A DNA stretch of 64,000 bases from a virus: IMG/VR virus record IMGVR_UViG_3300010167_000022, one strand, 5' to 3'. Of this stretch, positions 5,425-42,858 are shown piece by piece. The notes beneath the pieces are model-generated. The model was not told the origin of the DNA, did no database searches, and saw only the letters and a program-made list of their open reading frames with translations. Every line of letters begins with the position of its first letter. Within the stretch, counting starts at the first letter, position 1. Both the position numbers and the translations under genes were made by a program.

Positions 5425-5459
5425 ATTATTATCATTCCCTTATTTTATTTTTACATACA

Positions 5460-5753
5460 TTATACAATGTCAATAGTTACAGGTATATATCTACACATAT
5501 ATCCTTTTGGTATGATATTATCAGACTCTTCAAACTCTAGATTTGATACCAATACTAATTGACATTGTTCTTGTAGAATGTCATATATATAGGTAGATCT
5601 ATCTGTGTTTAATATATACATTTCATCACCTTTGCCAACAACTTTTGTTAGTTTGCAAACGGAGTTATTTCTTATATCTTCTAACGCTTTTGCTGCTTTA
5701 ATTTTATACATAATTACATCAGCATTATTTCTTGGTATTAGACTTAAAAACAT
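5460..5753 (-). CDS. hypothetical protein
   Basis: ORF 97 aa. Confidence 0.45.
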   Translation of the reverse strand: MFLSLIPRNNADVIMYKIKAAKALEDIRNNSVCKLTKVVGKGDEMYILNTDRSTYIYDILQEQCQLVLVSNLEFEESDNIIPKGYMCRYIPVTIDIV

Positions 5754-9403: not shown

Positions 9404-10268
9404 CCCCCATTCTCCGCATTACAAGCCTTTCTGCTAATAACCGCGTCCTAACTATCATAAGAGCCTTACCCATCATATTCTTTCCAGCGCCATTATAAAC
9501 TCCCCAAAAATCATCGCCCCAATTGTTTGTTTCTTCCAAATATTTAAAGCCAGTGTTAAGTAGGAATGCTCTTAAATGTGCATTCTGAGAAAACTTATTA
9601 TATAATATCTCTTGAACAATCTTAACCTTTGTATCTTCCCATTCGTCTTTCATTGGGCATTGGTGACCATATTCTTTTGCCTTTGCAGGAGTAGGCGTAT
9701 TTAAAATCTTCTCTTTCCATTCTGAACAATCTGTTTTGTAATATTGTAATGCATGCTCTGCTGATTTAAATGTTATGCCATCCATTATAAATTTAGTTGT
9801 ATCAAAATTGCTTAATGGCCTATATTTCTCAAAGAATCCTTTAATATAATATTCTGTTACTTCTGTTTTATTATTGAGAACACCTGTATACTTAATAGAG
9901 CTTATGTCAAACATCGTATCAATAGGAATACGAGTCTGGCTTATTACACCTTCTTGTGTAAAATAAACTTGTATATCATCCTTCCAATATTCATTAATCT
10001 CATACTCATATAGATAGTATCCTGCGGTTTCCAATTCGTAGGCATCCATAACAGAGAACCAGAAGTTCATCTGCGACTTATCTTTGGCTCCACTATACCA
10101 ACGTTTCCCGTCTTTTCTGTATTTGTCGTCATGCCCCATTGGCATATCAGCGCAGCGTCCTTCTGTAAGTGTGTGAATAAATCCATTATAAGAGCCATCA
10201 GCGTTATACCACATACCATGTTGATTATCTTTGTGTGCTATACGATATGTTTTAATTGTTTCTTGCAA
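9390..10268 (-). CDS. NADAR (YbiA/DUF1768)-domain protein with an unassigned N-terminal domain of about 140 aa
   Basis: C-terminal FFEKYRPLSNFD...AEHALQYYK...GDDFWGVYNGAGKNMMGKALMIVR resembles NADAR; 14-nt overlap with nadE. Confidence 0.5.
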   Translation of the reverse strand: MQETIKTYRIAHKDNQHGMWYNADGSYNGFIHTLTEGRCADMPMGHDDKYRKDGKRWYSGAKDKSQMNFWFSVMDAYELETAGYYLYEYEINEYWKDDIQVYFTQEGVISQTRIPIDTMFDISSIKYTGVLNNKTEVTEYYIKGFFEKYRPLSNFDTTKFIMDGITFKSAEHALQYYKTDCSEWKEKILNTPTPAKAKEYGHQCPMKDEWEDTKVKIVQEILYNKFSQNAHLRAFLLNTGFKYLEETNNWGDDFWGVYNGAGKNMMGKALMIVRTRLLAERLVMRRMGVANV

Positions 10269-10307
10269 AAATCTTCACATCCTTTCAGTGTATTTATACA
10301 AATCTAA

Positions 10308-11888
10308 TCAAAACTTGCTATTCCATAATCTATTGCGAATAGTAGCGAAATCATCTATATTATATTGTTTGCCATCTACAAATTTCTTAACATATAAATT
10401 CCCTTCAAAATTAATAGCTTCTTCATATGTCAATTCATCTGTATATGTAATCTCGCCCAATGAATCATAATGTGCTGCAAAACAGCCTTTTTGTGATGCT
10501 TTAGCGCTATCCGTTTTTGGATTCTTTTGAATAGCAACTTCTATACCATCCATAATACAGCTAGTAGCTTTTATTGCATAACCACGGGTGTCCCGTGTGA
10601 CATATTGATAGCTTACTGAACCAATCCCAAAAAATATATTTTCTACAGATATTTTCATTTCAACACAACGTTTAAGAATTTTTTCTTGCCGTTCTCTTGT
10701 TATAGCATCTGCGTAAATCATTCTTATTTGTGAAGGAAGAACATCATACCCTTTTTTGTTTGTACTTACTCCAAATATTTTCTTTAATACTCGAAGACTG
10801 CCAATTTTTTCATACCATAAATCAGCAAGTGAATCACCACATGTAATCTTAATTGGATCGCCAGAATCGGCACGGATTACTAATGCGCCTTGTCTATTAC
10901 ATATATCATCTATTAACTTTGGTAGTATCCATGTAAGTACGCCCCAATAGTCATATGTGTCGGATACATAAGACAATGCGCCTTCTAGCTGTACATCTGT
11001 AATAAGGTATTTAATAACACACATTTCAGCGACTAGCTTAATATCAACTGGGCTACCATCTTCACGTTTAGAATTTTTATATTTATCCCATGTTATGCCT
11101 TTGTATTCTCCACCAGATAGTAACATATTTTCAAATTCTGCTATAAGTTGACATACAATGCTATGCTCTAAAGATGGAGTAGCCATATTAGTTAAGTCTT
11201 TTTCTATATCTGCGTTATAATATTTTTCTAAGAAATCTGCTGATCCCATTGTTGCTGATTTAGCAAACGATAATAAATGCCCTCCACTTGATGCCATGGC
11301 TGCTGATTCCATTTCAGCCATTCCACGCAAGCTAAAATCACTAATCATATATTTTGTTATATTTGTATCTTCGCATGTTATATCTACATATTTTTGTTGT
11401 AATGTTCTTCTATCATGCCCAGTTGTAGCAGATGTTGGAGGCATCCAGTTATGCGTTGACCATAAATCTTCAAGATACTGAGGTAGCCAACCAAAATCAG
11501 GATGTGTATTTCTAATCCAATGGTCTGGAACATTAACTGGGCAAAGTGTTCCTTCTGGCAACCCCCATATTTCGATTGGAAGATAGCCAAGCTCATAAAG
11601 TTTTCTAAATTTAGAAAAATCAGAATATCGTGGGCTAAAACATATAGAAACATTTCTTACATGTTTTTTCTCTAAATCATCTACATCCTTATAAAAGAAA
11701 TTATTATCAAACCAATCAATCATATATTGTTTGATTCTTGCTTGTTGCCCCCATATAACTGTATTTTTAGCTTCTTGCTGATACTTGTTATATCTTCCTG
11801 TCCAACCAGTAAATACATGGCTTACGCTTTTAGGTTGTAAAAAAGGATGGCAAATTTTATATCCGTCCACAATACCATATAGCCCCAT
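10308..11888 (-). CDS. nicotinamide phosphoribosyltransferase family (NAMPT/NadV, or Namat-like)
   Basis: 526 aa, size and overall sequence character of NAMPT; adjacent to the Prs-like gene. Confidence 0.7.
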   Translation of the reverse strand: MGLYGIVDGYKICHPFLQPKSVSHVFTGWTGRYNKYQQEAKNTVIWGQQARIKQYMIDWFDNNFFYKDVDDLEKKHVRNVSICFSPRYSDFSKFRKLYELGYLPIEIWGLPEGTLCPVNVPDHWIRNTHPDFGWLPQYLEDLWSTHNWMPPTSATTGHDRRTLQQKYVDITCEDTNITKYMISDFSLRGMAEMESAAMASSGGHLLSFAKSATMGSADFLEKYYNADIEKDLTNMATPSLEHSIVCQLIAEFENMLLSGGEYKGITWDKYKNSKREDGSPVDIKLVAEMCVIKYLITDVQLEGALSYVSDTYDYWGVLTWILPKLIDDICNRQGALVIRADSGDPIKITCGDSLADLWYEKIGSLRVLKKIFGVSTNKKGYDVLPSQIRMIYADAITRERQEKILKRCVEMKISVENIFFGIGSVSYQYVTRDTRGYAIKATSCIMDGIEVAIQKNPKTDSAKASQKGCFAAHYDSLGEITYTDELTYEEAINFEGNLYVKKFVDGKQYNIDDFATIRNRLWNSKF

Positions 11889-13730: not shown

Positions 13731-14020
13731 GTATATTATTTCTATGTGTTTGTATGCTCAATTCAGGACATATAATTTTATGTCATCAAGTGAATACACA
13801 ACCATTTATTATGCCGGGCAGCTTGTTTAATTATTAGGAAACTCCTATAGATATAAACAATTAACGGACTTGTTCTTCTAATATTTATCTAATAAATGTA
13901 TTGAAAATATATTTTTGTCGGTTACAGTTTAAAAGACTACAAAGCGCTTAAAACCCCTGAAATACAGCGTCTTATAAGAGATTAACAAGGATTGATTAAT
14001 CTTAAATAAGATATGTATTA

Positions 14021-14067
14021 CAGGACTTTGACTCCTGCACTCGAAGGTTCAAATCCTTCCAGCTCAG
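14021..14067 (+). other. 3' fragment of tRNA-Gln(UUG): anticodon arm, variable loop, T-arm and 3' acceptor strand; putative attP core
   Basis: CAGGA-cTTTGac-TCCTG anticodon arm; GAAGG-TTCAAAT-CCTTC T-arm; CAGCTCA acceptor 3' strand; no matching 5' half upstream; lies next to int. Confidence 0.55.
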
Positions 14068-14186: not shown

Positions 14187-15329
14187 CTAGCCTTGCAAAA
14201 CGTTGGTTATACCATTTAACATCATTTTTTTAGCGGATGCCTCTAATTTGGCGTAAAGGTTCATAGTCGTTCCTATATCTCCATGTCCTAACCATGCTTG
14301 AATATCCTTTAAATTATAACCAAGCGCTAAAAGTAAAGAGGCTGAAGAGTGCCGCAAATCATGTAGCCGGATATGTCTCATATTATTTTTTTTCAACAGT
14401 TTCCTAAAAGCTACAGATATATAGTTTGGGTTAATTAATTCCCCAACATCATTTACACATATATACCCATCATAATCATAGCAATATGACATCCCAAAAA
14501 TTTCCTTATTGATTTCCTGCTTGGATTTTAGCTCTGTTAAAAACGCCATAAATGTATCATCTAGTGGCATTGTCCGATAGCTAGATTTTGTTTTTAAGGT
14601 GTCGGAAAATTCTAATCTATATTTGCCATCATCATTGATAGGGACTACCTTATGACCTATGAAAAATGTTCTGTTGACCCAATCTACTGCACTCCACTTT
14701 AATCCAACAATTTCAGAACGTCGCAGACCAAAATATATGGCGAACATCAAAGGAGTTTCGATTGGTGAACATTTAATAACCCCCAAGAGAGTTGCAATTT
14801 CATCCTTGTTATAGAAATCGCCTATAAATTTCTGCTTTTTTGGCCTTTCTACAAAATCAGCAGGATTCTCTTTTATTGCACGTGTTTTTTTCGCATATTG
14901 TAGGGCAGTCCTTATAAGCGTAAGGTGTTTTATAACAGTGTTAGGACTTACAAACTTTAACTTATAAGTACAATAGGCTTGGATATGTTTGGTTGTTAAA
15001 TCTAGTAAACATATTCCTTTTTGATTAAAATACGGATGTATTTGTTTTAATAATCGCTTATACCCCGCATAAGTTATAGCTTCTACATTTGCCCGGTGCA
15101 TTTCAAGCCAGTCTGTAAGAAAATCACAGAATAGAATCCTAGTATCTTGCACATTCTGAACATCGCTATATTCTTCAATTTTTTGTTTTAGGAATTGATC
15201 TGCTTTTTTCTTATTCCCTATAATGGTATAACCTGTGCTAATCCATTTCTGGGTTTGTTTCCCACCGCTGTTAAAACATATAACAGCATAATACTTATTG
15301 TTCTTTTTTTGCAAGCTTCCAGTCGTCAC
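14187..15329 (-). CDS. int: tyrosine integrase (GTG start)
   Basis: C-terminal HDLRHSSASLLLALGYNLKDIQAWLGHGDIGTTMNLYAK (HxxR...Y); AAGGAGGG RBS. Confidence 0.85.
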   Translation of the reverse strand: MTTGSLQKKNNKYYAVICFNSGGKQTQKWISTGYTIIGNKKKADQFLKQKIEEYSDVQNVQDTRILFCDFLTDWLEMHRANVEAITYAGYKRLLKQIHPYFNQKGICLLDLTTKHIQAYCTYKLKFVSPNTVIKHLTLIRTALQYAKKTRAIKENPADFVERPKKQKFIGDFYNKDEIATLLGVIKCSPIETPLMFAIYFGLRRSEIVGLKWSAVDWVNRTFFIGHKVVPINDDGKYRLEFSDTLKTKSSYRTMPLDDTFMAFLTELKSKQEINKEIFGMSYCYDYDGYICVNDVGELINPNYISVAFRKLLKKNNMRHIRLHDLRHSSASLLLALGYNLKDIQAWLGHGDIGTTMNLYAKLEASAKKMMLNGITNVLQG

Positions 15330-16842: not shown

Positions 16843-17154
16843 TCACTCCTTCTGTACTATATTAATAAATTTATAGTTATCACTATAATTGTTATATTGC
16901 ATAACAAGTATATAATCTCCAATTTCTACAATACGTGGACTTACAACTGCTTGGTATATTACATTAACAACTATTCTATTTCCATCTATATCAGCTATAA
17001 ATGCTATTGGCTTATACTTGTTATCAATATCAATTCTTGTAACTATAGCAATTTGCATTGCGTTTTCATCATAATCATCGGATTTATCACACCAATTTGT
17101 AGATAGTACAATAATAAATGCTATTACTAAAACAATCTTAAAAAACTCCATCAT
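16843..17154 (-). CDS. small secreted protein (signal peptide)
   Basis: ORF 103 aa; MMEFFKIVLVIAFIIVLSTNWC. Confidence 0.45.
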   Translation of the reverse strand: MMEFFKIVLVIAFIIVLSTNWCDKSDDYDENAMQIAIVTRIDIDNKYKPIAFIADIDGNRIVVNVIYQAVVSPRIVEIGDYILVMQYNNYSDNYKFINIVQKE

Positions 17155-18538
17155 TATTCTCCATCACAAGATTATATTTGTATACAACAAATGCAATTAA
17201 ACTCTCTTTGTTATTTTTGTCTGGATTATCAATTACATATTCTAAGCAATTATTTAATATCTCTCCCAGTATCTTTCCTTGTACAAATCCAATGTTGATA
17301 AGGTCATATCCATTAATAGCTAAATCTCGTATTGTGAAAGCTTCGTTGTTAAATAATATGTCATGCCATATTGTTTTAATCTCAGAAACCTTACAAACCC
17401 ATTTATCATATTCGCCAGATCCCCACCTATGTGCCTTTTTATCAATTAGCTGGAATGCGAACAATTTTATGCATAAATCATGTCCTAACTTATTCAACAA
17501 CTTCTTTGCCACATTGCGTGTTGGCTGCAGCACAAAATCATGTGCTTCAACAAGTTTTAAAACTATTTCAATTGTTTTGTTGTCAAATCGCATCCGATGC
17601 ATAATCTCTTGTGCCATTTTAACAGAATATATTTCATGTCCATAGTAGTGATTAGTTAACCGCTTATCATCAAACACACGCGCTTTAAGTTTCCCTATAT
17701 CATGTAGGAGTATTGTCATTATCAACTCAATATCGTCTGTATAGCCAAAAAATATCATATCCATAGTATGAGTAAATACATCCGTATAATGCCATATGTT
17801 ATTATGTGTTATTTGAGCAAGCCCTATAAACTCCGGTATAATACGTTTAATTATATACTCAATCATACCGCGAAGTTTAGGATAATGATAAGTATCTTTG
17901 TCTAACTTATTTATAGCACATAATATTTTTACTATCTCTGCATTTTTACGTTCCATTGAGATATTTTTAAGATTATCACCACACTCAAAAATCGCATTAA
18001 TGACTTCTTTTGAAATATCAAAATCTAAAGTAGTAGCAAATCTAATTGCTCTCATTATACGTAATGCATTTTCATTAAACCTGTTCTCTGCGTTCCCAAC
18101 AGTCTTTATTATTTTATTTTTTAAATCAGATTGTCCGCCAAATAAATCAATAATCCCATATTCATCATTATATGCCATAGCATTAATAGAAAAATCCCGG
18201 CGGCATAAATCATCTTTAATAGTATTTGAAAAATTTACTGCATTTGGTCTCCTTCCATCTCCATATGACCCATCAGCACGATAAGTGGTTATTTCATATG
18301 ATACTTTATTTAATAACACAGTCATTGTTCCATACTTCTCACCAGTTGGTATTAAGTAATATGAACTAAAAATTTCTTTTATTTCATTAGGCATTGCGTT
18401 TGTGGCTATATCCCAGTCTTTAGGCACTACTCCCAATAACGAATCTCTAACACATCCGCCTACAATATACGCTTCAAATCCATTATTATTAAGTTCGCAC
18501 ATTATATTTCGAACATCTATTGGAAGATTGATTTCCAA
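17138..18538 (-). CDS. cca: tRNA nucleotidyltransferase (CCA-adding enzyme) with C-terminal HD domain
   Basis: GGCVRDSLLG head motif near the N-terminus; LLHDIGK HD motif; 466 aa. Confidence 0.8.
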   Translation of the reverse strand: MEINLPIDVRNIMCELNNNGFEAYIVGGCVRDSLLGVVPKDWDIATNAMPNEIKEIFSSYYLIPTGEKYGTMTVLLNKVSYEITTYRADGSYGDGRRPNAVNFSNTIKDDLCRRDFSINAMAYNDEYGIIDLFGGQSDLKNKIIKTVGNAENRFNENALRIMRAIRFATTLDFDISKEVINAIFECGDNLKNISMERKNAEIVKILCAINKLDKDTYHYPKLRGMIEYIIKRIIPEFIGLAQITHNNIWHYTDVFTHTMDMIFFGYTDDIELIMTILLHDIGKLKARVFDDKRLTNHYYGHEIYSVKMAQEIMHRMRFDNKTIEIVLKLVEAHDFVLQPTRNVAKKLLNKLGHDLCIKLFAFQLIDKKAHRWGSGEYDKWVCKVSEIKTIWHDILFNNEAFTIRDLAINGYDLINIGFVQGKILGEILNNCLEYVIDNPDKNNKESLIAFVVYKYNLVMENNDGVF

Positions 18539-21617: not shown

Positions 21618-22931
21618 TTAATTATAATCTATTATTTCTTGTGCTTCTTCAATATCAGGTGATGTAGCTGAGTCTTTAATAATTCCCTCAATAACTTTGA
21701 AGTGCCAGTTTTTATGCTTAAATGCTGTAAATCTTTCTCTGTTTTCAATTCTAACAACTATGCCTTCTTTTATATGTGTTTTACCAATTGGATCGAACCC
21801 ATCACAATATTTATTTGCATGCTCCATAAGATCTTCAAATGTTGTATAAGTAAAACGTTCATATGTAGGACAATACCTAACCCCCATTTGTTCGCAACGA
21901 AGCTTCACTAATCCATATGGATACTCAACTACATAGCCATCCTCATTTGTAATTGTCATTCTATATACATAGGTTTGGCTCTCACCGTCATCACAACCAT
22001 ATGAAAAACGTGTCTTGTCACCATATTGTTTAATGAATTCTTTATCATTAACTTTTTTATTCGAGCAATCTGCCATTATAGGAGTGTTGGGGGAAACATA
22101 TCCAACAACCTCATAATAAACAGTTTCACCTTTTTGAAGTTTGCCAACAAATCTGTCATGATGCCGTTGTCGAAAAGCATTACTTCCATAGTAGCCACCA
22201 TTTAAGTCTTTTAGCACAACTCTTCTTGTTCCGCATACATATTCCCATGATTTTTTAATTTTAGGTAACAATCTTAACGCTTTAAATATTTTAACTAACC
22301 AATATGGCAAATATTTTCTTGTCTCTTTTAATGTATAAGATGTGCGTTGTGAGGTTCCATGCATCTTTAAAGTAATTTCACACTGATCTCCTTCTTTAAA
22401 AGCGTTTTTATTATATACAAGCTGTGATGTATCATAATGTTCCATAAATAAGGGAAAACTTGTTTTATCATATATTTTTTTAGATTTCTCTTTATTTTTC
22501 CCCACACTTTGTCTACGATGTTTGCCCATAGGAATATACTTTTCACAAATTAAAAGTCCATTTAATATAGTTATAGAATCTCCTTCATTAAGTATAGAAA
22601 CATCTGTAAATTTATTAAGTGAAATCAATGGCATAAATAAACCATCGCTCATTTCACCTCTTAGTTTTATAGCTTTAATATTTCGCTTTTCAGGATCAAG
22701 AAATCCACCTATTTGATTTCCATCTGCATCTTTATTACGTAGAAGATTATTTGCCGCGCAATACTCATTGCATAGTTTACCATCTATTGGGAAATAAATT
22801 CCTAATTCATCTTCTGATATATTTGTACTTACTATAACGTTGTTTCCAAAACACTCTCCAATCAGGAGTTTATCAGCATTTGTATGTCTTCTTAAGTTTT
22901 TTATTCTTGTTATATATGCGCAATAAGCCAT
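21618..22931 (-). CDS. ATP-dependent RNA ligase (Rnl2/Rnl5-like, with an N-terminal extension)
   Basis: nucleotidyltransferase motif I LKMHGTSQR (KxHGxx) at about aa 190; 437 aa. Confidence 0.6.
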   Translation of the reverse strand: MAYCAYITRIKNLRRHTNADKLLIGECFGNNVIVSTNISEDELGIYFPIDGKLCNEYCAANNLLRNKDADGNQIGGFLDPEKRNIKAIKLRGEMSDGLFMPLISLNKFTDVSILNEGDSITILNGLLICEKYIPMGKHRRQSVGKNKEKSKKIYDKTSFPLFMEHYDTSQLVYNKNAFKEGDQCEITLKMHGTSQRTSYTLKETRKYLPYWLVKIFKALRLLPKIKKSWEYVCGTRRVVLKDLNGGYYGSNAFRQRHHDRFVGKLQKGETVYYEVVGYVSPNTPIMADCSNKKVNDKEFIKQYGDKTRFSYGCDDGESQTYVYRMTITNEDGYVVEYPYGLVKLRCEQMGVRYCPTYERFTYTTFEDLMEHANKYCDGFDPIGKTHIKEGIVVRIENRERFTAFKHKNWHFKVIEGIIKDSATSPDIEEAQEIIDYN

Positions 22932-28223: not shown

Positions 28224-29279
28224 TTAAGATGTGTAACCAAATGCATACTTCCAATCGCTATAATCTTTCCTCCATCTCAATAATTTTAACATCAACTCTC
28301 CTTTGTCATTATACTCAACACGAAGATGATATGCAAGATATTTTGCAATTTCATATTCATAATTATCAATATCAGATGTAATTTTTACACCATTTATTTC
28401 TCCTTTTAGCTCACACTGATATAATCTATGAAATACACCTGATATGCGAACAGTAGAAGGAGATAGCTGTTCGCTTGATTTTGAAGTCTTATATATAACA
28501 CGTATAATACGATTTAATGAAGATAACGGAATCTGTGTTTGCTGTGTTCTTGCATTTTGCCTTAATTGTGGTCGTATTAAGTAGTCGTTATCTATTAGAG
28601 GAATCATTATATATTCTTCTGTTGTTGATTTTGTTGATCTTTCCGCCTGTGCATTTTTCTTTTCTATTCCATCAACATCTTGAAATCTAAGCCACAAATC
28701 AACTGTCTCGTCAGATAACTTTACAATATATCCACCCCCCAGCGTTATTGAATTTGTATTTAAATCAAGATCGGATTTTTTTAAATCTACAATATCATTG
28801 AATGTTAACCCGTCAAAAACCAAATGTAATACTAAACTATTTCGCATAGATGCATTAGGATAATTAACTGTATCAAGTCCATTAAAAATAATAGTTTTAA
28901 GCTGTTCATAATCCCCTAGCATCTTACTAGTGATTGTGCTTTTTTCTTTTAATGCATCTACAGTCATTATGTCAAAAGCCTTTTTGTCTTTTGTAATCCC
29001 CTTTACTAACAAAGCCCACGATGCATATCCTCTCATTGATGCTAAAAAATGAGATATTGATAAATCTCGTCTTATCCCTAGTGATAAAAATGCTATTTTT
29101 AATTCATCGTAAGTCATAAATATTATATCTGTACCATTATCGCCAGTTGAAACCTCTGCATCGTATAGTCGTTTAAAATAGTTTTCCAATGCAATTTTAT
29201 TGCTTTCCTTTTTTTCAAAATCAATGTACTCTTCTTTCAAATTCCTGTTAAACATTAATGTCCTAACTTGTTTACCCAC
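28224..29279 (-). CDS. hypothetical protein, possibly a degenerate tyrosine-recombinase-like fold
   Basis: 351 aa; RNSLVLHLVFDGLTFNDIVDLKKSDLD resembles recombinase box I; ...GVFHRLYQ...YLAYH; very uncertain. Confidence 0.45.
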   Translation of the reverse strand: MGKQVRTLMFNRNLKEEYIDFEKKESNKIALENYFKRLYDAEVSTGDNGTDIIFMTYDELKIAFLSLGIRRDLSISHFLASMRGYASWALLVKGITKDKKAFDIMTVDALKEKSTITSKMLGDYEQLKTIIFNGLDTVNYPNASMRNSLVLHLVFDGLTFNDIVDLKKSDLDLNTNSITLGGGYIVKLSDETVDLWLRFQDVDGIEKKNAQAERSTKSTTEEYIMIPLIDNDYLIRPQLRQNARTQQTQIPLSSLNRIIRVIYKTSKSSEQLSPSTVRISGVFHRLYQCELKGEINGVKITSDIDNYEYEIAKYLAYHLRVEYNDKGELMLKLLRWRKDYSDWKYAFGYTS

Positions 29280-29799: not shown

Positions 29800-30996
29800 C
29801 TAATATATACCATTATTACTTAATCCACTAAAAATATTACTTAGAAACTCATTACTATTATTCCCATGCTTTCCTTCCAGTGCATCAATAATACTTTTAT
29901 CAAATACAGGATAAATATTTTTACTTCTGAAATAATTAATTACTCTTTCTACTTCATCATCGCTGATATATGCCCCTTGTATCCTCATAGGATTCATATC
30001 ATTTTCTCTTTTAAATAGCATATCACCCTTTCCAAGTAATGATTCAGCACCTGTCCTACCTAGTGCAACCATAGAACTTTGTGGTTTATCTACTGCAAAT
30101 ACTATTTTAGTCTGCAAGTTATCTTTTATGCGGGAAGTTATAATATCAGCAGATGGTCTTTGTGTTGCTACTATTAAATGAATCCCAGCAGCTCTACTTA
30201 GCTGAGATATTTTAATTATTGCATCTTCTACTTTTTTTGATGATGACATTATAAGCTGAGATAATTCATCAATTATAACTACTATCCTATATAACTTTTT
30301 GTCATTCATATTATTCTTTTCTAATATCTCATTGTATCTATCTATATTTCTTATAGGAATATTATTTAGCTTTGCTATCTGATTTAATAATTCATATCTT
30401 CTATTTGTTTCTTCGCAAAGCCATTCTAGCATTATTTCTGCTTTTTTTTCATCTGTTATAACTGGGGCCAATAGATGTGGAATATTTTCATAAGGTGTTA
30501 ATTCCACTTTCTTTGGGTCTAATAATACAAGCCGTAATTCTTTTACTGGTTCCATTATTAAACTTGATATTAATACATTTATAAATACAGACTTGCCAGA
30601 ACCTGATGCCCCAGCGATTAATATGTTTCTTAACTCCGGTAGGCTTCCATATATTTTTTCCCCGCATTGACTTTCTCCAATTGCAAACTTTAGCGGAGCT
30701 GTTGAGCTTTTGTATTCTGAAGATCTTATAATATCTCCAATTCTCAATATCTCATTAGATTTATTAGAAACTTCTATTCCAATTGAATTATTAGCCATCT
30801 GCACAATTTGTACAGTTTCCGCTTTCAACCTTATACGTATATCTTCTTTAGCTCTTTTTAGTTTTGCCGATTTTTCGCCGTCTACCATATGAAGTTCGTA
30901 TGTTGTTGTTACACGACCTTGTATATCTCCAATTACAATTGCATTTATACCAAGCACTTTTAATATATTTTGTACTTGTGCATATTTATCAATCAT
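29800..30996 (-). CDS. FtsK/SpoIIIE-family DNA translocase motor ATPase
   Basis: Walker A LIAGASGSGKSV; Walker B VVIIDELSQL; LIVATQRPSADIITSRIKDN...GRTGAESLLGKGDML matches the FtsK motor core. Confidence 0.75.
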   Translation of the reverse strand: MIDKYAQVQNILKVLGINAIVIGDIQGRVTTTYELHMVDGEKSAKLKRAKEDIRIRLKAETVQIVQMANNSIGIEVSNKSNEILRIGDIIRSSEYKSSTAPLKFAIGESQCGEKIYGSLPELRNILIAGASGSGKSVFINVLISSLIMEPVKELRLVLLDPKKVELTPYENIPHLLAPVITDEKKAEIMLEWLCEETNRRYELLNQIAKLNNIPIRNIDRYNEILEKNNMNDKKLYRIVVIIDELSQLIMSSSKKVEDAIIKISQLSRAAGIHLIVATQRPSADIITSRIKDNLQTKIVFAVDKPQSSMVALGRTGAESLLGKGDMLFKRENDMNPMRIQGAYISDDEVERVINYFRSKNIYPVFDKSIIDALEGKHGNNSNEFLSNIFSGLSNNGIY

Positions 30997-35799: not shown

Positions 35800-36171
35800 T
35801 TAAGCAACTAAATTTACATCATCTATATCTATATAACTTACGCTTGTTGTATATTTATCTGTTTTTATAGACATAAAATGATATAGTTTTTGCACTACTG
35901 TTCCTTCTAGTGTTTTAGCTACATCATCAGCAACCCATGCGCTTACTGTATCTGGATATAAATTTATTATTACTCTAGATCCAGTTTTAAACAAACTACA
36001 TCTATCTTTTGTTTTATTTACTCTTGCTTTTAATGTTGCTGCTTCCTTCATTTTATTTTCAAAATCTTCTGATTCTTCTATCCTGCTTTTCCAACTTCTT
36101 TTTTTCTTTGGAATAGGTTCACTAACAATATCTACATCAGTTGTGTCAAAATTTGCTATGCGCTTTGGCAT
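35800..36171 (-). CDS. hypothetical protein
   Basis: ORF 123 aa. Confidence 0.5.
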   Translation of the reverse strand: MPKRIANFDTTDVDIVSEPIPKKKRSWKSRIEESEDFENKMKEAATLKARVNKTKDRCSLFKTGSRVIINLYPDTVSAWVADDVAKTLEGTVVQKLYHFMSIKTDKYTTSVSYIDIDDVNLVA

Positions 36172-36222
36172 TTCACTTACCCCCTATCACTTGAATATCT
36201 CATGTACACCCACATAATACAC

Positions 36223-36564
36223 CTATTTATTCCTCTCCCATATTAAATCCATATTTTCTAGTTTTCGTGATAAAAAGAAAATATCACCTCTTGGGTATAA
36301 GACTTTCATAATATCAAATGCTTTATCTGTTGGGCAAAGCATATCTTCATTATACTTATTTGAACCCATAAATCCGCATCCTATATTTATATCATATAAA
36401 CGCGATAGTATAATTTTAAGTTCTTCGTCTTCGTGTTCACTAAACTTTACAAAAAATTTTTCTACAAACCCATTCATTCGTGTATTTATATTTTCAAACA
36501 CAACGAATATACTTTTATTTCTAACTACTATTCTCATACCATTTTTTAGATCTTTAAGTTTCAT
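36223..36564 (-). CDS. hypothetical protein (N-terminus paralogous to 43658..44344)
   Basis: MKLKDLKNGMRIVVRN compared with MNLYDLKSGMRVRTRN. Confidence 0.5.
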   Translation of the reverse strand: MKLKDLKNGMRIVVRNKSIFVVFENINTRMNGFVEKFFVKFSEHEDEELKIILSRLYDINIGCGFMGSNKYNEDMLCPTDKAFDIMKVLYPRGDIFFLSRKLENMDLIWERNK

Positions 36565-36740
36565 TTACTCCCCCCTTTATGAAATTATTCATGCGAAAAG
36601 TATGCGCCATATTTAATTTTTGCACACCATTATAAAAGTGCATTCTGCCTATGTTTTTAATAAATAATAAAAACTAAAAATCATGTACTGTTTTCCGATA
36701 TAATTGATATATAAATGTATTTTTACTATGCCTATTCGTT

Positions 36741-36992
36741 CTATCTTTGTATTCTTATTGATTTAATTCCATTCGCTATATCATTAATAATATCTATTCT
36801 AGTGATTGAATTTGGATTTATATGAATTGCATATTGTAATCCATCTTTACAATATACTAATACATAATCATCGTTATCTATATATCTGTCGCTACTAAGA
36901 TCAGAACCTTTTATTAATTCAAATTTTTGAAAATAACTTTCAGCACAGTTAAATAATATTCCGCATTCTTTTATAAATCTTTCTTTGCTCAT
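36741..36992 (-). CDS. hypothetical protein
   Basis: ORF 83 aa; 4-nt overlap with the upstream gene. Confidence 0.45.
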   Translation of the reverse strand: MSKERFIKECGILFNCAESYFQKFELIKGSDLSSDRYIDNDDYVLVYCKDGLQYAIHINPNSITRIDIINDIANGIKSIRIQR

Positions 36993-37216
36993 TCACTATC
37001 ACTCCAATCAAACATAGCATCTGTCCAATCATACATTACACAATATTTTGATTTTTCATGATTGCATATTGAATATGTCTTATCTCCAACAGTATTAATT
37101 GTAACAATTTCTCCTGCCAATACTGACATTATTGGAGTAACCATTATACCATCATATGTATCAAATGCTTTTAAATTTGATAATAATCTTCGCGAATCTT
37201 CAGATTCCATTTTCAT
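36989..37216 (-). CDS. hypothetical protein
   Basis: ORF 75 aa. Confidence 0.45.
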   Translation of the reverse strand: MKMESEDSRRLLSNLKAFDTYDGIMVTPIMSVLAGEIVTINTVGDKTYSICNHEKSKYCVMYDWTDAMFDWSDSE

Positions 37217-37252
37217 AATTATATCCCTCCAAAAATTTATTACAAATAATAA

Positions 37253-37786
37253 TTATACAAATAAAATATCTGAGTAGCTTAATATTTTACTATAATGATA
37301 GTATTCACAATGTTTAAAATATACTAAAGCCCCATATGAAATGCAACCATTCTCTATACAATAGCATGTATTTTCTTTGTGTGATTGCCAGTATGTATTT
37401 TGTTTGTCAATAATAGATGACGAATGCCATTTAATATTATTATCACTAAATATTCTAAATAAATCTATAGCTTCTTCTTCTGTTTTACAATTTATAATGA
37501 GGATACAATTTAAAATATTATGAAATTCTAAAAATCTTTTAATATTAAACGTTTTTTTTCTACCTGAAGCGATTAATAATTTGTCGTATGCGAATTTATT
37601 AATATCAAAACAATTATCATATTTGCTTCTTTCTTCCATTTCATTTGCAATTTTAATAATTGTACCTTCTAATCCATCTTTGCTTTTAAAATCATCATCA
37701 CTAATAATATTCTTATTAATAAGAGTCCCAGCTAGAATAGAGATATTAATAATATTATCTATAATTTCATTATTCATAATGACCAA
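37253..37786 (-). CDS. hypothetical protein
   Basis: ORF 177 aa. Confidence 0.5.
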   Translation of the reverse strand: MVIMNNEIIDNIINISILAGTLINKNIISDDDFKSKDGLEGTIIKIANEMEERSKYDNCFDINKFAYDKLLIASGRKKTFNIKRFLEFHNILNCILIINCKTEEEAIDLFRIFSDNNIKWHSSSIIDKQNTYWQSHKENTCYCIENGCISYGALVYFKHCEYYHYSKILSYSDILFV

Positions 37787-37843
37787 TCCTTAAACTAAAA
37801 TTTGTGAAAATTCATTTCTTTGCAAATAAAATTTTAATACAAA

Positions 37844-37871
37844 TTTTAATAGAAGAAATATTCTATTAAAA
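37844..37871. promoter_or_regulatory. PeSL-like palindromic intergenic element
   Basis: ttttaatagaagaaatattctattaaaa. Confidence 0.55.
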
Positions 37872-37875
37872 TATT

Positions 37876-38109
37876 TTAATTATTTAACCACTCATATATA
37901 TCTTTAATAAATACTTTATCATCTTTATTATCATTATATTTAGTGAATGATGAATAAATTGTTGCACCAAAAAGAATAACTGCTATAACTTCATCGTCAA
38001 AACTAACTGTTGGATACTCACTGCTATTATCATCAAAAAATTCTTCTAGTGAATGCCAGACATTACATCTAATCTCTTTATCATAATCTTTTGATATTAT
38101 TTTTAACAT
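37876..38109 (-). CDS. hypothetical protein
   Basis: ORF 77 aa. Confidence 0.45.
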   Translation of the reverse strand: MLKIISKDYDKEIRCNVWHSLEEFFDDNSSEYPTVSFDDEVIAVILFGATIYSSFTKYNDNKDDKVFIKDIYEWLNN

Positions 38110-38146
38110 CTAATCATCCTTATAATATAATTTATGATTCTACTTA

Positions 38147-38413
38147 TTAATTATATCTATCGTATTTCTTTTTTATAATATCAACATATATTTTTATTTT
38201 ATGAGAGCATAATAATACTAATTCACTAAATATATAACAAATATACAAAAGCCAAACTAATGGAAAAATTATTGTTAATGCTACTATAATAATAGCGTTA
38301 TTAACATAGTCGTCGTCTTTATTAAAAATCTTTACCCCATTTGAATCTTTTGCAAAAGATATAAATAACATAGCCGTAATAAATCCTAACAATAAATATA
38401 AAAACATCTTCAT
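38147..38413 (-). CDS. small membrane protein
   Basis: ORF 88 aa, two hydrophobic helices. Confidence 0.45.
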   Translation of the reverse strand: MKMFLYLLLGFITAMLFISFAKDSNGVKIFNKDDDYVNNAIIIVALTIIFPLVWLLYICYIFSELVLLCSHKIKIYVDIIKKKYDRYN

Positions 38414-38474
38414 ATACTCCTTATCTAAACCTTATTTATAAATGTATTAATGCTTGCTCCGTTTTTAATATTAT

Positions 38475-38753
38475 CTACAACGCACGTTTAGTATATCCTA
38501 CGCCATTAATTTTAAGATAATCTTCTAATTCATTCCTTCCTATATCATCAATACTAAAGCATTTACTGCAGAAGTAGTGGCAAATAATATTATCACAAAC
38601 ATTCTGCAACCCCTTCCAGCTATTTATGTTATTAATTACATTCCACATTGTTTTCAGTTTCACTTTATTATGACATTTCTCACATCGTTTAGACAACAAA
38701 ATGAACTTTGAAGAGATTTTAAAATAAAGAAAATAATATATATATCTTTTCAT
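38475..38753 (-). CDS. Cys-rich small protein (start moved to the internal ATG, MKRYIYY...)
   Basis: the track ORF overlaps the upstream gene by 58 nt; the internal ATG avoids the overlap. Confidence 0.4.
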   Translation of the reverse strand: MKRYIYYFLYFKISSKFILLSKRCEKCHNKVKLKTMWNVINNINSWKGLQNVCDNIICHYFCSKCFSIDDIGRNELEDYLKINGVGYTKRAL

Positions 38754-38769
38754 ATTATATACCTTCCAT

Positions 38770-39357
38770 TTATAATAAATCAAAAATCCCGTCTCCACAA
38801 TCTTCATTCCACTGCATAATGAATTCATATGTGAATGTATCGCTTAGATTGTTATAAATATCTATAACTGTCCATCCATCATCTATAAGCCTAAATATAT
38901 ATTCTGTCACATTATTTACAATCAACTCATCAAATGATATATTAATTATTGATTCTTTTTCTTTTTCTTTTTCTTGTATGCTTCTTTCTTCTATTTCTAT
39001 CGCTTCTTTAGAAGCAATAGTTTCGCTTTCGATTATTTCAGCAACAATTTTTAATAGGTCATCTTTTGATAAATTATTAGAATATAAAAACTTGCAATCT
39101 GTAAATGTTATGTTGTTGATAAGATGAATAGAATAATAATATTCACTTGGTTCTAAATCCCATTTTTCTTCAGTTATATGTAGTGAAGCTTTATTCCCAT
39201 TTTTGTCTTCTAAGAATAAACAATAGTCCCCTGCACATCTATCCCCATTATCATTTGTTTCTCCATCTTTTTCAAGTCTTTCTAACAGCATATTAGTTAA
39301 TATTCCTGGTTGTACAATAGTTTTAAACATATATTCACCTAATTTCAGAATTCTCAA
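38770..39357 (-). CDS. acidic hypothetical protein
   Basis: ORF 195 aa. Confidence 0.5.
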   Translation of the reverse strand: MRILKLGEYMFKTIVQPGILTNMLLERLEKDGETNDNGDRCAGDYCLFLEDKNGNKASLHITEEKWDLEPSEYYYSIHLINNITFTDCKFLYSNNLSKDDLLKIVAEIIESETIASKEAIEIEERSIQEKEKEKESIINISFDELIVNNVTEYIFRLIDDGWTVIDIYNNLSDTFTYEFIMQWNEDCGDGIFDLL

Positions 39358-40291
39358 TTAAAACTAGTTTCCAATCTCCGCTATGATAGATTGTTTTTGT
39401 ACGACTGTCTTTTATTACAGCATTATCACACAGTATAATACTATCTTGTTTTATACCTTTTGAGAACAAATTATTTTGTATTGACACAATTGAGCTATCT
39501 CTCATCTCTCTTACAGTCGAGCTACCCCACATCTCTCTTATATTTGAACTTCCACTCATCACTCCTACAATTGAGCTTTCCCACATCGTTTCTACGGTTG
39601 AGTTATCACACATCAGACGCACAGTTGAGCTATCTCTCATATCTCTAACAGTTGATCCTTGCAACATCTTTTCTACAATTGATCTTTGCCTCATCACTCC
39701 TACAGTTGAGCTATCCCACATCTTTTCTACAATTGAGCTATCATTCATCTCTCTTATATTTGAGCTATCCCACATCTCTCTTACAGTTGAGCTATCACAC
39801 ATCTCTCTTATATTTGAGCTATCCCACATCACTCCTACAGTTGAGCTATCACACATCTTTTCTACAATTGTGCTATCACACATCAGACGCACAGTTGAGC
39901 TTTTCAACATTGCAATATTTACATTGCCTGTCAATATAATATCGTTACAATCTTTTAAATAATAATTAGCTCCTGTTGACAATTCTAATCCGTCAACACC
40001 AATATAAATACGGGATTTAGCCCATTCTTTTACTGCAGTGATCATGCGTTCTTTTTCATAATCTTTAACAAACCAGTCAGGCACTATATCTTGGTTAACA
40101 TTAAATCTCCATGTAGCAATATCAGAAAAGACATTATTGTCTTGTGGAATAAGTTCTACACGTACAAAAATAGGCTTAGTATTTTCGGGATTGCCATCTA
40201 TATTTAATTCTTTAAACATATCTGCATAATTGTCGTAGTCTGGTATAAAAACTCTATCCTTTAAAATAATTCCACTTTTAAACAAATACAT
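39335..40291 (-). CDS. tandem 8-residue-repeat protein (about 18 units of xDSSTVxEM); start at MYLFKSG after an AAAAGGGG RBS
   Basis: 24-bp DNA repeats 39480-39915, in frame; the track's first 22 codons read through the upstream palindrome. Confidence 0.55.
   Translation of the reverse strand: MYLFKSGIILKDRVFIPDYDNYADMFKELNIDGNPENTKPIFVRVELIPQDNNVFSDIATWRFNVNQDIVPDWFVKDYEKERMITAVKEWAKSRIYIGVDGLELSTGANYYLKDCNDIILTGNVNIAMLKSSTVRLMCDSTIVEKMCDSSTVGVMWDSSNIREMCDSSTVREMWDSSNIREMNDSSIVEKMWDSSTVGVMRQRSIVEKMLQGSTVRDMRDSSTVRLMCDNSTVETMWESSIVGVMSGSSNIREMWGSSTVREMRDSSIVSIQNNLFSKGIKQDSIILCDNAVIKDSRTKTIYHSGDWKLVLIENSEIR
39480..39915. repeat. imperfect 24-bp tandem repeat array, about 18 units, coding
   Basis: units such as tacagttgagctatcacacatctc; no unique spacers. 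Confidence 0.7.
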
Positions 40292-40330
40292 ATAAATAAC
40301 CCCTTTTATTATAATATTTTTATTTTTTAA

Positions 40331-40358
40331 TTTGAATAGAATGCGTCTTCTATTCAAA
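40331..40358. promoter_or_regulatory. PeSL-like palindromic intergenic element
   Basis: tttgaatagaatgcgtcttctattcaaa. Confidence 0.55.
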
Positions 40359-40443
40359 TTTTTATGTATATTTATACATTATTCAATACTTTATACATTA
40401 ATTATACATCAAAAATGTATAATTATACACTGTTTTATAACTG

Positions 40444-40743
40444 CTAAACGCGATTTTCTGTATCCCATATATTTATCTCTTTTTCTTTTTGAACACGGCA
40501 AGAGCATAAGACTTGTTCAAACATTGCTTCTGTGAACCACATATCTATATGGCGTATCCTGTACATCATTACATTGGAATAATCATTCCGACAACGATCA
40601 ATAATTTCTCCACTACGCCCACCATAATGAACATGGGCACCTTGAGCATTAATTCCACCATAAAATTCATGTTCAATTAAATCTTTTCTTACTATTGCCA
40701 ATTTACCAATAAGTGTATCTCGCAATGCTATCAAATCCTTCAC
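40444..40743 (-). CDS. hypothetical protein
   Basis: ORF 99 aa. Confidence 0.45.
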   Translation of the reverse strand: MKDLIALRDTLIGKLAIVRKDLIEHEFYGGINAQGAHVHYGGRSGEIIDRCRNDYSNVMMYRIRHIDMWFTEAMFEQVLCSCRVQKEKEINIWDTENRV

Positions 40744-40853
40744 AGAATATATTTTCGCAAATTTGATTATATTTTATCACTAAAAATATATGAATAGAAA
40801 TAATATTCTAGTGAACTACCATACGCAGCTTTTATTTCAAATTATAATTAATT

Positions 40854-41171
40854 CTAATAATCATCTGCAATATTAATAAACTCATCGCAAGGGTCATACC
40901 CCTCGAAAATAATATTAAATATCTCTTCTAATAGCTGTCCCCATACAGGATTCTCTTCGTTATCAGGAGAGCCGCTATTCATCATACTTACAACCCATTC
41001 AGCAAACTCTTTTCTTTTCCCAGGAATTACTTTTGCAAATAGTTTGTCATCTTCAATATTATTAGGGCTATTATGAAATAACCATACTAAATCCTTTAGT
41101 GTGATTTCCATTTTTAGTTTATCATTTGTTACTTTAAATTTCATAATTTGGTTATTGGCTTCTATTGCCAT
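40854..41171 (-). CDS. hypothetical protein
   Basis: ORF 105 aa; GGAGGA RBS. Confidence 0.5.
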   Translation of the reverse strand: MAIEANNQIMKFKVTNDKLKMEITLKDLVWLFHNSPNNIEDDKLFAKVIPGKRKEFAEWVVSMMNSGSPDNEENPVWGQLLEEIFNIIFEGYDPCDEFINIADDY

Positions 41172-41191
41172 TATAATTCCTCCTCAAAATA

Positions 41192-41219
41192 TTTAAATAG
41201 AAATGATCTTCTATTAAAA
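41192..41219. promoter_or_regulatory. PeSL-like palindromic intergenic element
   Basis: tttaaatagaaatgatcttctattaaaa. Confidence 0.55.
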
Positions 41220-41241
41220 CTATAAATTGATATAATAAATA

Positions 41242-41667
41242 TTAACACTCTAATATAAAATGCATATATTCTCCCATGTGAGAATGGATTTCTCGTTCTA
41301 AGTCATAACCGCCAATATGGAATGTTTCTAAGCAATACCCAGTAATAGCATATTCTGAATATCCAGTTAGTCTTATATCTGTTTCGATATCGCCTTCTAA
41401 TTTACATATCAATGAACCAACTGCTTCATCTAATGTAGATTTATGATTAGTAAAGTAAATTCGAAGACTGGCATCATAGATATATGACATTTCACCACCT
41501 AGTCCATCCTTAATTCCTTTTACACTTCCATTATCATATGCAAAATTATGAACTAATTTAGGTATAGAGTTAGCTTCACATAATTTCACTTTTCTATTTG
41601 TTTCATCAACTGAAATAACACCGCAGTCATCAGTTACAACAAAACCATTAATATATAATTCAGCCAT
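41242..41667 (-). CDS. hypothetical protein
   Basis: ORF 141 aa. Confidence 0.5.
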   Translation of the reverse strand: MAELYINGFVVTDDCGVISVDETNRKVKLCEANSIPKLVHNFAYDNGSVKGIKDGLGGEMSYIYDASLRIYFTNHKSTLDEAVGSLICKLEGDIETDIRLTGYSEYAITGYCLETFHIGGYDLEREIHSHMGEYMHFILEC

Positions 41668-41692
41668 TTTAATAAGCTCCTTTAAATATAAT

Positions 41693-41719
41693 TTTTAATA
41701 GAAGCATACTTCTATTAAG
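41693..41719. promoter_or_regulatory. PeSL-like palindromic intergenic element
   Basis: ttttaatagaagcatacttctattaag. Confidence 0.55.
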
Positions 41720-41767
41720 ATACTTCATAGCGCATATTCATACACAATCTATTATTTTATGTTAATA

Positions 41768-42193
41768 CTAGTTAAAATCAGATTGTTCTAATATTTTCGT
41801 TTGTATAAGATGAACAAATTTATATTCCTGCGAAGCTAAACTATCGTTAATTAAACTATTATATCCAGATAATGCATCGTCATAATTATCGCCATAGTCT
41901 TCTTCAATATATTCTCCATATTCTTTATCTTCTGACACAACAGAATAGCTAACATTATTTTCTATTTCTTGATTTGGATAATTGGGATAGTTAGAAGGTT
42001 TTTCTATGTATATAGCCGCCCAATGTGTAACCCCATTCATCTTAACATCACTTCTTACATCAATCCAGTGAGAAATTCCTACTTTATGGTACTTATTAAA
42101 TGTCCAAACATAACTTACAATATTATTTACATCTTCTGTTCCTGGCATTCTATCATTACATTTAATCCAATTAACATACATATTACCACTCAT
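41768..42193 (-). CDS. hypothetical protein
   Basis: ORF 141 aa. Confidence 0.5.
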   Translation of the reverse strand: MSGNMYVNWIKCNDRMPGTEDVNNIVSYVWTFNKYHKVGISHWIDVRSDVKMNGVTHWAAIYIEKPSNYPNYPNQEIENNVSYSVVSEDKEYGEYIEEDYGDNYDDALSGYNSLINDSLASQEYKFVHLIQTKILEQSDFN

Positions 42194-42206
42194 CTCTTAT
42201 TATTAT

Positions 42207-42386
42207 TTACTCGTTATCTTTTTGTTCGTACTCTAATATACGTTCCGCTGCATCAAAAATAAAATTTTTAATATCTTCGTGTGCAAAAATCATATATGCT
42301 TTATAAAAGCCATCCCCTAAAAATATTTCTAAATGACCGTCTTTATCTCTTCGTACAATTTTTTCTTTTATCATATTATTATCCAT
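42207..42386 (-). CDS. small hypothetical protein, about 59 aa
   Basis: manual: GGAGATG RBS then ATGGATAATAATATG...; not in track. Confidence 0.35.
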   Translation of the reverse strand: MDNNMIKEKIVRRDKDGHLEIFLGDGFYKAYMIFAHEDIKNFIFDAAERILEYEQKDNE

Positions 42387-42405
42387 ATTATCATCTCCTT
42401 ATAAT

Positions 42406-42858
42406 CTATTTATATAATTTTTTATATCTTGTAATGCGATTTTTAATATCATCTATTGCTATACGTTGAAAATTTTTTATTTTAAAATCATCTTTTAATG
42501 ATGAATTAAAATATGTTTCAAGCAATATATCATTATAAATATATCCGCCTACAGTATAAAATTTTATTCCACTAATGTCAATCTGCATATATGTAATATC
42601 ATGCTCATCAACTAGTGCAAATGCAGTAATCAAGTCATGTTCATATTTTCCAAATACAATATTTTCATCTGTACTAATATTATTAAATCCATCTAACTCA
42701 TTAATCAATCCATCTATTTTCCAATATCTATTTTTAATTCTAAAAATAGTTCCTCTACAAGTTAGAAAGTCAATTCCTTTATATGTTGTATCATTGCCAT
42801 TATTATTTAATAATCTATCTTTATTAAAGATAAGAACTCCATAATCTGCTCCAGCCAT
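42406..42858 (-). CDS. hypothetical protein
   Basis: ORF 150 aa. Confidence 0.5.
   Translation of the reverse strand: MAGADYGVLIFNKDRLLNNNGNDTTYKGIDFLTCRGTIFRIKNRYWKIDGLINELDGFNNISTDENIVFGKYEHDLITAFALVDEHDITYMQIDISGIKFYTVGGYIYNDILLETYFNSSLKDDFKIKNFQRIAIDDIKNRITRYKKLYK

Follow-up and report, generated by a model that had tools for sequence, protein, structure and literature searches.

What kind of protein is encoded by a phage gene that carries an in-frame tandem repeat, and what might the repeat be for? The question is raised by the minus-strand gene 39335..40291 in a 64,000-nucleotide stretch of viral DNA, IMG/VR record IMGVR_UViG_3300010167_000022 (the whole stretch is referred to as the window; feature coordinates are collected in Table 1). 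An earlier note, made from the letters of this DNA, had described within the coding sequence (CDS) a 24-bp array encoding about 18 octapeptides between non-repetitive N- and C-terminal parts. Tandem Repeats Finder (TRF) and the list of open reading frames (ORFs) agree on an in-frame tandem array inside the CDS, the flanking parts are present, and the plus-strand ORFs 39460..39648 and 39652..39939 are, as had been said, mirror artefacts of the array. The array itself proves to be a run of nonapeptides, confidently predicted to form a beta-solenoid and attached to an N-terminal domain (N-domain) which in some relatives is joined to targets of diversity-generating retroelements (DGRs). The explanation preferred here, to which we give about an even chance, is that a constant N-terminal module is combined with a variable recognition or length-setting solenoid surface in an early-made phage accessory protein.

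The period of the array is 27 bp. Autocorrelation of 39480..39915 gives identities of 0.71, 0.72, 0.70, 0.70 and 0.75 at lags of 27, 54, 81, 108 and 135 bp, against a background-level 0.23 at lag 24, and TRF reports a period of 27 across 39486..39884 (14.8 copies, 73% matches) together with a 135-bp super-period of five units across 39485..39901. A 27-bp period implies a nonapeptide unit, and the octapeptides give way to 16 nonapeptides, aa 130-273; the motif given for the octapeptide, xDSSTVxEM, itself counts nine letters. In register the units read KSSTVRLMC, DSTIVEKMC, DSSTVGVMW, DSSNIREMC and so on to a last DSSIVSIQN, with the consensus (D/G)-S-S-(T/I/N)-(V/I)-x-x-M-x. Four unit types (RL, EK, GV and RE) lie within an ancient five-unit block, of which the array holds about three copies. 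Units share on average 71% DNA identity, and the longest stretch repeated exactly within the array is 31 bp; the array looks old and not recently expanded. Assembly collapse is not a concern in the window, because the longest exact repeat is so short and the units so diverged. A collapsed assembly, which the earlier note had kept in mind, a chimeric one or a non-coding repeat is a practically negligible explanation: the general risk that repeats pose in assemblies speaks for it and nothing beyond that, while the ORF is intact and has a ribosome-binding site, an identical protein is recorded in a public collection (P0001, on a contig of 225,398 bp), and hundreds of independently assembled homologs, in 578 clusters, share the architecture.

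AlphaFold2 (AF2), run with a 99-sequence alignment, returned a model with a predicted local distance difference test score (pLDDT) of 90.7 and a predicted template modelling score of 0.81. The structure prediction proposed in the earlier note as a check for a beta-solenoid thus came out in its favour, with regular strand-turn units: each nonapeptide forms one 5-residue strand and a 4-residue turn, and the pattern runs on into the C-terminal cap, whose strands 292-295 and 300-303 extend the solenoid. Upstream of the array two degenerate rungs occupy aa 112-129. The linker carries a K-D-C motif whose Cys115 is invariant in 99 of 99 sequences, and a Cys occurs at a comparable spot after the N-domain in four DGR-type sequences inspected. 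The cap is conserved as N-A-x-x-K-D-x-R-x-K-T-I-Y-x-x-G-D-W-K-L-V. Secondary structure in the N-domain of the model follows the order beta-beta-alpha-beta-beta-alpha. On this model the repeat region is confidently predicted to stack as a rigid capped beta-solenoid, a class marked by tandem short strand-turn repeats with conserved positions presumed to face inward. Ser3, Val5 and Met8, with the Asp/Gly-Ser turn, would build the core and turns, and one coil probably takes two units (18 residues). Within the window units entropy is low at positions 3, 5 and 8 (0.3-0.7 bits) and higher at positions 6, 7 and 9 (1.7-2.6 bits), where position 6 is Arg, Glu or Gly, position 7 is mixed and position 9 is Trp, Cys or Arg. 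Foldseek returned nothing significant for the model, and the N-domain of about 100 aa has no clear fold relative.

Homologs of the protein are numerous. The protein-database search gave at least 578 at E <= 1e-3 (counted as clusters at 90% identity), most of them spanning 97-100% of the query. They are 236-345 aa long, come from gut Firmicutes phages and prophages, and share three parts, namely an N-terminal stretch of about 125 aa starting MC(K/R)(F/L)KSGIILKD, a nonapeptide run, and a cap ending KTIYQxGDWKLV. The consensus of 1147 units, taken from 107 proteins, is in per cent (G58/D36)-(S68/N26)-(A50/S49)-(T70/S16)-(V81/I19)-x-x-(M49/I31/V19)-(C29/Y22/R20/W15), positions 3, 5 and 8 being conserved and 6, 7 and 9 variable; a regular-expression repeat finder put the number of units at 1-18 in a protein, and at 5-18 in nearly all of them. 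For the window protein Pfam gives no match at E <= 10, and searches of PHROGs, NCBIfam, PADLOC and PDB sequences likewise brought nothing significant. PADLOC-DB models gave none for it or for three homologs and one chance-level match for the homolog P0105; the family profile found nothing in PDB, nor did two homologs strongly positive for PF18836.

That Pfam family, the YdcK beta solenoid repeat (B_solenoid_ydck), is matched above its cut-off of 30 by several homologs with G-[SN]-A-T-V units (P0035 62, P0042 55, P0026 52 and P0118 34 bits). Homology to YdcK of E. coli MG1655 was rejected, hhalign giving a probability of 1.8% against the family profile and no PDB YdcK entry being matched; what PF18836 picks up in those homologs is thus a likeness of short motifs, which does not make them members of that family. 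YdcK, for its part, resembles a left-handed beta-helix of hexapeptides (matches to LbH_EIF2B, Hexapep and Bactofilin) and not a 9-residue repeat, and it has neither the N-domain nor the cap. Literature searches on YdcK or beta solenoid, PF18836, and nonapeptide repeat, beta-helix and phage yielded nothing on the family. Large as it is, the family is thus absent from Pfam, PHROGs and NCBIfam save for this short-repeat motif in some members. Beta-solenoid repeats and variable-number repeats are already known; the nonapeptide, the N-domain and the alternative coupling of that domain to DGR targets or solenoids are absent from the libraries and literature searched.

The comparison of repeat counts among relatives that the earlier note had asked for reveals wide variation. 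In one lineage (P0005, 8, 9, 13, 15, 16, 23, 28, 29, 32, 34, 49, 63, 72 and 75) the N- and C-flanks are 98-100% identical and the arrays measure 111, 120, 129, 138, 147, 156, 165 or 174 aa; the length differences inspected are exact multiples of 9 aa. Unlike arrays between N-flanks at least 95% and C-flanks at least 90% identical were found in 151 sequence pairs. Compared as DNA, the P0015 and P0009 genes share 99.7% identity in their first 375 nt and 100% in their last 150 nt, yet have 16 and 11 units, respectively, in unlike order, and their arrays contain exact internal repeats of 42-59 bp. Their loci (L087 and L088) are 99.7-100% identical in the non-repeat parts of the gene, the surrounding DNA being about 90% identical or unrelated. 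By these comparisons the repeat number varies quickly in the family, whose hypervariable, fast-evolving portion is the C-terminal half. The gene also moves among otherwise unrelated phage backgrounds: positions 9966-10590 of locus L001 match window positions 40325-39702 at 85% over 626 nt, and the 10-kb flanks share nothing.

A contingency locus in this genome, at which slipped-strand mispairing switches or varies the protein within the phage population, had been suggested in the earlier note and has only a slim chance of being correct. Near-identical alleles elsewhere in the family do differ in repeat number and the window array contains the 31-bp exact repeat, but the 27-bp unit is in frame, and slippage therefore cannot switch the gene off; nor, at a mean unit identity of 0.71, is this the array of a simple-sequence contingency locus. 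The closest relative, P0002 (66% identical, outside the window), differs from the window protein throughout the array and not merely in unit count. No paralog of the gene occurs within the window.

The N-domain reaches well beyond the nonapeptide proteins. Its profile has 1577 representative clusters (at 50% identity). Nearly all of the 150 matches listed, all but a handful, begin at the first residue of the protein or close to it. The superfamily is defined here by MC-KSG...DSH...VDQDxxPDW; the window protein is a member, its aa 1-102 sharing 42-81% identity with the 35 further sequences in one alignment (A4). Within it, aa 61-85 (window about 40037-40111) hold the conserved W-x-F-x-V-D-Q-D-I-x-P-D-W-F-V-E-E-x-E-K. 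The part of this motif reading DQDxLPDWF..E.EK (window protein; P0042, L060) gives weak Spb1_C/FTSJ3 matches (PDB 8fkp_SJ, E = 0.23; Pfam PF07780, E = 0.004), and a relationship to Spb1/FTSJ3 was rejected, these being probably chance matches to a short motif.

The N-domain is found on 173 viral contigs of IMG/VR, attached to C-terminal halves of three kinds. The first is the nonapeptide solenoid. The second is an octapeptide solenoid, in which units such as DSATVRAY or DSSTVTAM recur about 20 times between the same KDC linker and cap; these homologs are 42% identical over the full length, with the same N-domain. The octapeptide of the earlier note is thus present in relatives and not in the window. 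Since octapeptide homologs exist, the solenoid tolerates a one-residue change of period. Loci of this type include L029, L037, L024, L070 and L025 (gene start 3001), and ENSSVVAW is a further example of their units.

The third kind is a non-repetitive domain of about 150 aa ending WYWLATP...GVRPFFILKS, for which DUF6273 scores below the Pfam threshold (20.2 against 23.5 bits). In the literature DUF6273 is presented as a C-type-lectin-like (CLec) DGR target domain of gut phages (PMC10743442, PMC11792537, bioRxiv 10.1101/2024.10.15.618418); no description of the N-domain was found in PMC10743442 or PMC11792537. A pair of variable repeat (VR) and template repeat (TR) is present in 20 of the 24 third-kind loci tested: some 500 bp downstream lies a copy of roughly the last 85 bp of the gene, with 79-92% identity. 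Mismatches fall almost only at TR adenines in 19 of the 20 loci (18/18, 17/17, 15/15 and 14/14, for example), the exception being L065 with 5 of 11. A conserved 122-aa ORF occupies the Avd position after the target gene in a 20-locus cluster, and in L076, the one locus scanned for a reverse transcriptase (RT), an RVT_1 RT lies downstream. These relatives (L038, L045, L062, L064, L069 and L072-L085, on viral contigs of 33-216 kb) are targets of canonical DGRs. Like the known DGR variable proteins (Mtd-like targets and tentaclins; PMC10743442, PMC11792537) they carry the VR at the end of a DUF6273-like C-domain, and the order is target gene, Avd-position ORF, TR and then, in L076, RT. The N-domain of the window protein is 44% identical to that of the L076 target (E = 1e-19). 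In the window itself RT, Avd and CLec homologs were sought and none was found; the window protein, which has a solenoid in place of the lectin-like domain, is not a DGR target.

Within the N-domain, Cys2, His22 and Asp66 are all kept in 309 of 334 sequences, P0002 among them. In place of these superfamily residues the window copy, uniquely, has Tyr2, Tyr22 and Asn66 (codons 40288-40290, 40226-40228 and 40094-40096). Of 47 near-invariant columns it departs from the family at 6, the family median being 0. Its sequence marks the window copy as old and divergent within the family. Across the 334 sequences the losses are coupled, with Fisher p values, calculated without regard to kinship, of 1e-7 for Cys2 and His22, 4e-7 for Cys2 and Asp66, and 1e-5 for His22 and Asp66. 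Loss together beyond chance suggests one functional site, which may be metal-binding or catalytic and which would be dismantled in the window copy. The strict N-terminal position of the domain and its Met-Cys start likewise suggest a metal site or the chemistry of a free N-terminal Cys.

Information on when and where the protein acts comes from the surroundings of its homologs, which belong to the early replication and recombination modules of temperate phages and prophages. In Dulem virus 35 the homolog follows a cro-like repressor; in a prophage of a 2.2-Mb genome it lies between cI/cro and primase; another is flanked by a DNA methylase and by small early genes, upstream of terminase; and further homologs adjoin SSB/DnaB or RecT/HNH genes. 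A pooled Pfam scan of 115 neighbour ORFs from 27 IMG/VR loci gave 39 families, including SSB, AAA_24, DUF3799, Sak, Gp157, YqaJ, RecT, ERF, Gam, HTH_3, integrase, dUTPase, methylase and Lar; no structural family is among the 25 of the 39 that were listed. The window protein has no signal peptide. From the early-module context and the lack of a signal peptide it follows that this is an intracellular early or accessory protein. Such a non-structural, early-gene context is unusual for a family whose relatives include DGR targets, most known phage DGR targets being receptor-binding proteins.

The preferred explanation, a constant N-domain with a variable recognition or length-setting solenoid, joins these observations as follows. 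The product would be a cytoplasmic, non-structural phage accessory protein made of the N-domain, a 16-unit rod and the conserved cap, produced early in infection or induction and probably engaged in a phage-host or phage-phage arms race. Unequal recombination between units would alter their number and order and leave the N-domain and cap almost identical, in parallel with the sister branches, where the same N-domain is joined to an octapeptide solenoid or to a DGR-diversified C-type-lectin-like domain. The window copy would probably keep a binding or scaffold role, without the chemistry or metal binding of the Cys2/His22/Asp66 site. That one N-domain is paired with either a DGR-diversified lectin-like domain or a variable solenoid is a clue that the C-terminal half may be a recognition surface pressed to change. 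The binding function, the arms-race role, the part played by the Cys, His and Asp residues and the number of units per coil are what we infer.

The chief competing explanation, unlikely in our estimate, takes the rod for a length-setting spacer that only separates the N-domain from the cap, the functional sites being the N-domain (with its Cys, His and Asp) and the cap. Both of these are far better conserved than the array, the units are sequence-equivalent and lack higher periodicity, and the rod has 5 to 18 units in nearly all members, all of which a spacer would accommodate. A recognition module fits better with the sister branches, which swap the whole solenoid and cap for a DGR-diversified lectin-like domain, and with the exposed positions 6, 7 and 9, where Trp, Tyr, Arg and Cys are frequent, as is typical of binding surfaces.

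Several points nonetheless count against the constant N-domain with a variable solenoid surface. The DGR-targeted relatives share the N-domain alone, so that the logic of a variable binder would reach the solenoid by analogy, and no annotation or experiment points to any ligand. Variability of the arrays could be a neutral outcome of a high rate of unequal crossover and not of selection, and the window array, with its diverged units, bears no sign of recent change. Repeat counts come mostly from short-read metagenome assemblies, in which repeats of 42-59 bp could collapse and make some counts unreliable; against this doubt, the P0042 sequence is identical on 16 contigs and that of P0004 comes from a polished contig of 2.2 Mb. 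A super-periodicity of 18 or 27 residues was sought in the sequences and none was found. The model is of a monomer alone, with which an intertwined oligomeric beta-helix stays compatible.

An intertwined trimeric beta-helix of the kind that T4 gp5 has at its C-terminal end, which would make the protein a fibre or spike, is quite improbable. The triple-stranded helix of gp5 is built on an octapeptide, VxGxxxxx, and a short 8-9-residue unit with one strand is compatible with it; octapeptide relatives and one 9-mer relative come near the Gp5_trimer_C cut-off of 30.9 bits, relatives' scores being 30.3, 28.9 and 22.8. Every Pfam score is nevertheless below threshold, the gene is not in structural modules at the loci examined, the protein is small (the family size range given above), and a monomeric solenoid with caps at both ends is modelled with high confidence. 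Other beta-helical proteins are also distant. The autotransporter and adhesin beta-helices TibA (4q1q), Ag43 (7koh) and MpAFP (3p4g) and the putative adhesins of DUF2807/DUF4097 (3jx8/3ljy) show 2-9% sequence identity in the alignments and are secreted or surface proteins, whereas the window protein lies in a phage early module. The RTX beta-roll (GGxGxDxUx) likewise has a nine-residue unit with one short strand each and a variable repeat number, and RTX structures have two units per coil. The window turn, however, is (D/G)-S-(S/A) in place of the Gly-rich Ca2+-binding turn, the strands have 5 residues against 3 in RTX, and the window protein is cytoplasmic, phage-encoded and free of a secretion signal. 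RTX models gave no match, since Pfam and NCBIfam gave none for the window protein, and its unit consensus differs from that of RTX.

A DNA or nucleic-acid mimic, the first role offered in the earlier note, would be an acidic rod resembling DNA and inhibiting a nuclease, gyrase or restriction enzyme of the host, in the manner of Qnr and MfpA. These pentapeptide-repeat proteins are short-period right-handed solenoid rods that bind a partner enzyme. The predicted rod shape of the window solenoid, an isoelectric point (pI) of 4.86 for the whole protein, the Asp ladder at unit position 1, the early region and the Lar-type and methylase genes near some relatives would all suit a mimic. The idea is nonetheless as improbable as that of the trimeric helix: net charge per repeat averages -0.24 across the family (range -1.17 to +0.60, hence positive in some members) and is about -0.27 here, Gly occupies unit position 1 in 58% of family units, rod length ranges about 3-fold, no match to PADLOC or a known anti-restriction family was found, and the conserved N-domain is left unexplained. 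The window protein further departs from the pentapeptide-repeat class in its period of 9 against 5, its weakly acidic charge and the extra N-domain, and it has no Pfam pentapeptide match. A decoy or inhibitor of a host enzyme, which the earlier note also named, is a possible role.

A broader proposal can be put forward tentatively, as an unlikely one. The N-domain may mark an unrecognised class of intracellular early phage proteins whose C-module is made hypervariable in either of two interchangeable ways, by DGRs acting on a lectin-like domain in large phages or, in temperate gut phages, by shuffling and copy change of 8- or 9-residue units. They would serve as binders in an arms race, active in anti-defence or in superinfection exclusion of rival phages, with Cys2/His22/Asp66 as the effector, which may require a metal or a free N-terminal Cys; the window copy would be binding-only and site-dead. 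The family pattern is of more interest than the window locus, which taken alone is modest as an old, divergent and probably site-dead member. The family also offers a compact, designable 9-residue solenoid scaffold and testable hypotheses on the partner, on metal or N-terminal Cys chemistry and on repeat dynamics.

Gene boundaries and candidate control signals are listed in Table 1. The ATG at 40291 is the equivalent of the Met at which all of the at least 578 homologs begin; a longer start, TTG at 40357, was rejected as unsupported by homolog starts. The candidate promoter agrees with 10 of 12 consensus positions in a consensus scan, a consensus match alone. The perfect palindrome overlaps its -35 box and could be operator-like or the terminator of the upstream gene. 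Upstream of the palindrome, TGTATA/TATACA inverted and direct repeats are clustered at 40359-40434 and could likewise be an operator or terminator.

Table 1. Positions of the features discussed, in the window or, in the last four rows, in locus L076
Feature	Position	Strand	Basis or detail
CDS, 318 aa	39335..40291	minus	ORF list; ATG 40291, stop 39335-39337 included
Candidate ribosome-binding site AAAGGGG	40300-40306	minus	8 nt upstream of ATG
Candidate sigma-70-like promoter	40308-40336	minus	-35 TTCAAA 40336-40331, 17-nt spacer, -10 TATAAT 40313-40308
Perfect palindrome, 13-nt arms	40329..40360		AATTTGAATAGAA, 6-nt spacer, TTCTATTCAAATT; inverted-repeat search, 100% complementary
N-terminal alpha/beta domain, aa 1-102	39986..40291	minus	
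Linker and first degenerate solenoid rungs, aa 103-129	39905..39985	minus	DSSP strands 103-128 in model
16 units of 27 bp (nonapeptides), aa 130-273	39473..39904	minus	TRF, autocorrelation, register/entropy, AF2 strands
C-terminal cap, aa 274-318	39338..39472	minus	Near-invariant N290, K294, D295, K299, Y302, G305
Integrase ORF	14187-15329	minus	
L076, DGR target gene	3001-3774		
L076, VR	3653-3740		
L076, TR	4268-4355		
L076, RT	4604-5524		

Ten neighbouring ORFs that were scanned (35800-42858) have no Pfam match above threshold. The only match among them is below it, to DUF551 (19.5 against 22 bits), in the minus-strand ORF 41768-42193 (141 aa); DUF551 also adjoins homologs in IMG/VR loci, consistent with a phage early-gene neighbourhood. 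Near the integrase ORF a partial tRNA-like match to Rfam RF00005 at 14003-14059 on the plus strand (29.2 bits against a gathering threshold of 29, model positions 8-63), for which ARAGORN makes no call, may be a tRNA fragment or an attachment-site remnant. The window as a whole has a GC content of 29% and nearly all of its ORFs are on the minus strand. Among these, ORFs 10308-11888, 17138-18538, 21618-22931, 28224-29279 and 29800-30996 encode a nicotinamide phosphoribosyltransferase, a tRNA nucleotidyltransferase, an RNA ligase, a second integrase-like protein and an FtsK/SpoIIIE-like ATPase. The window is an accessory region of a large phage, with the auxiliary and tRNA-repair gene set typical of large phages.

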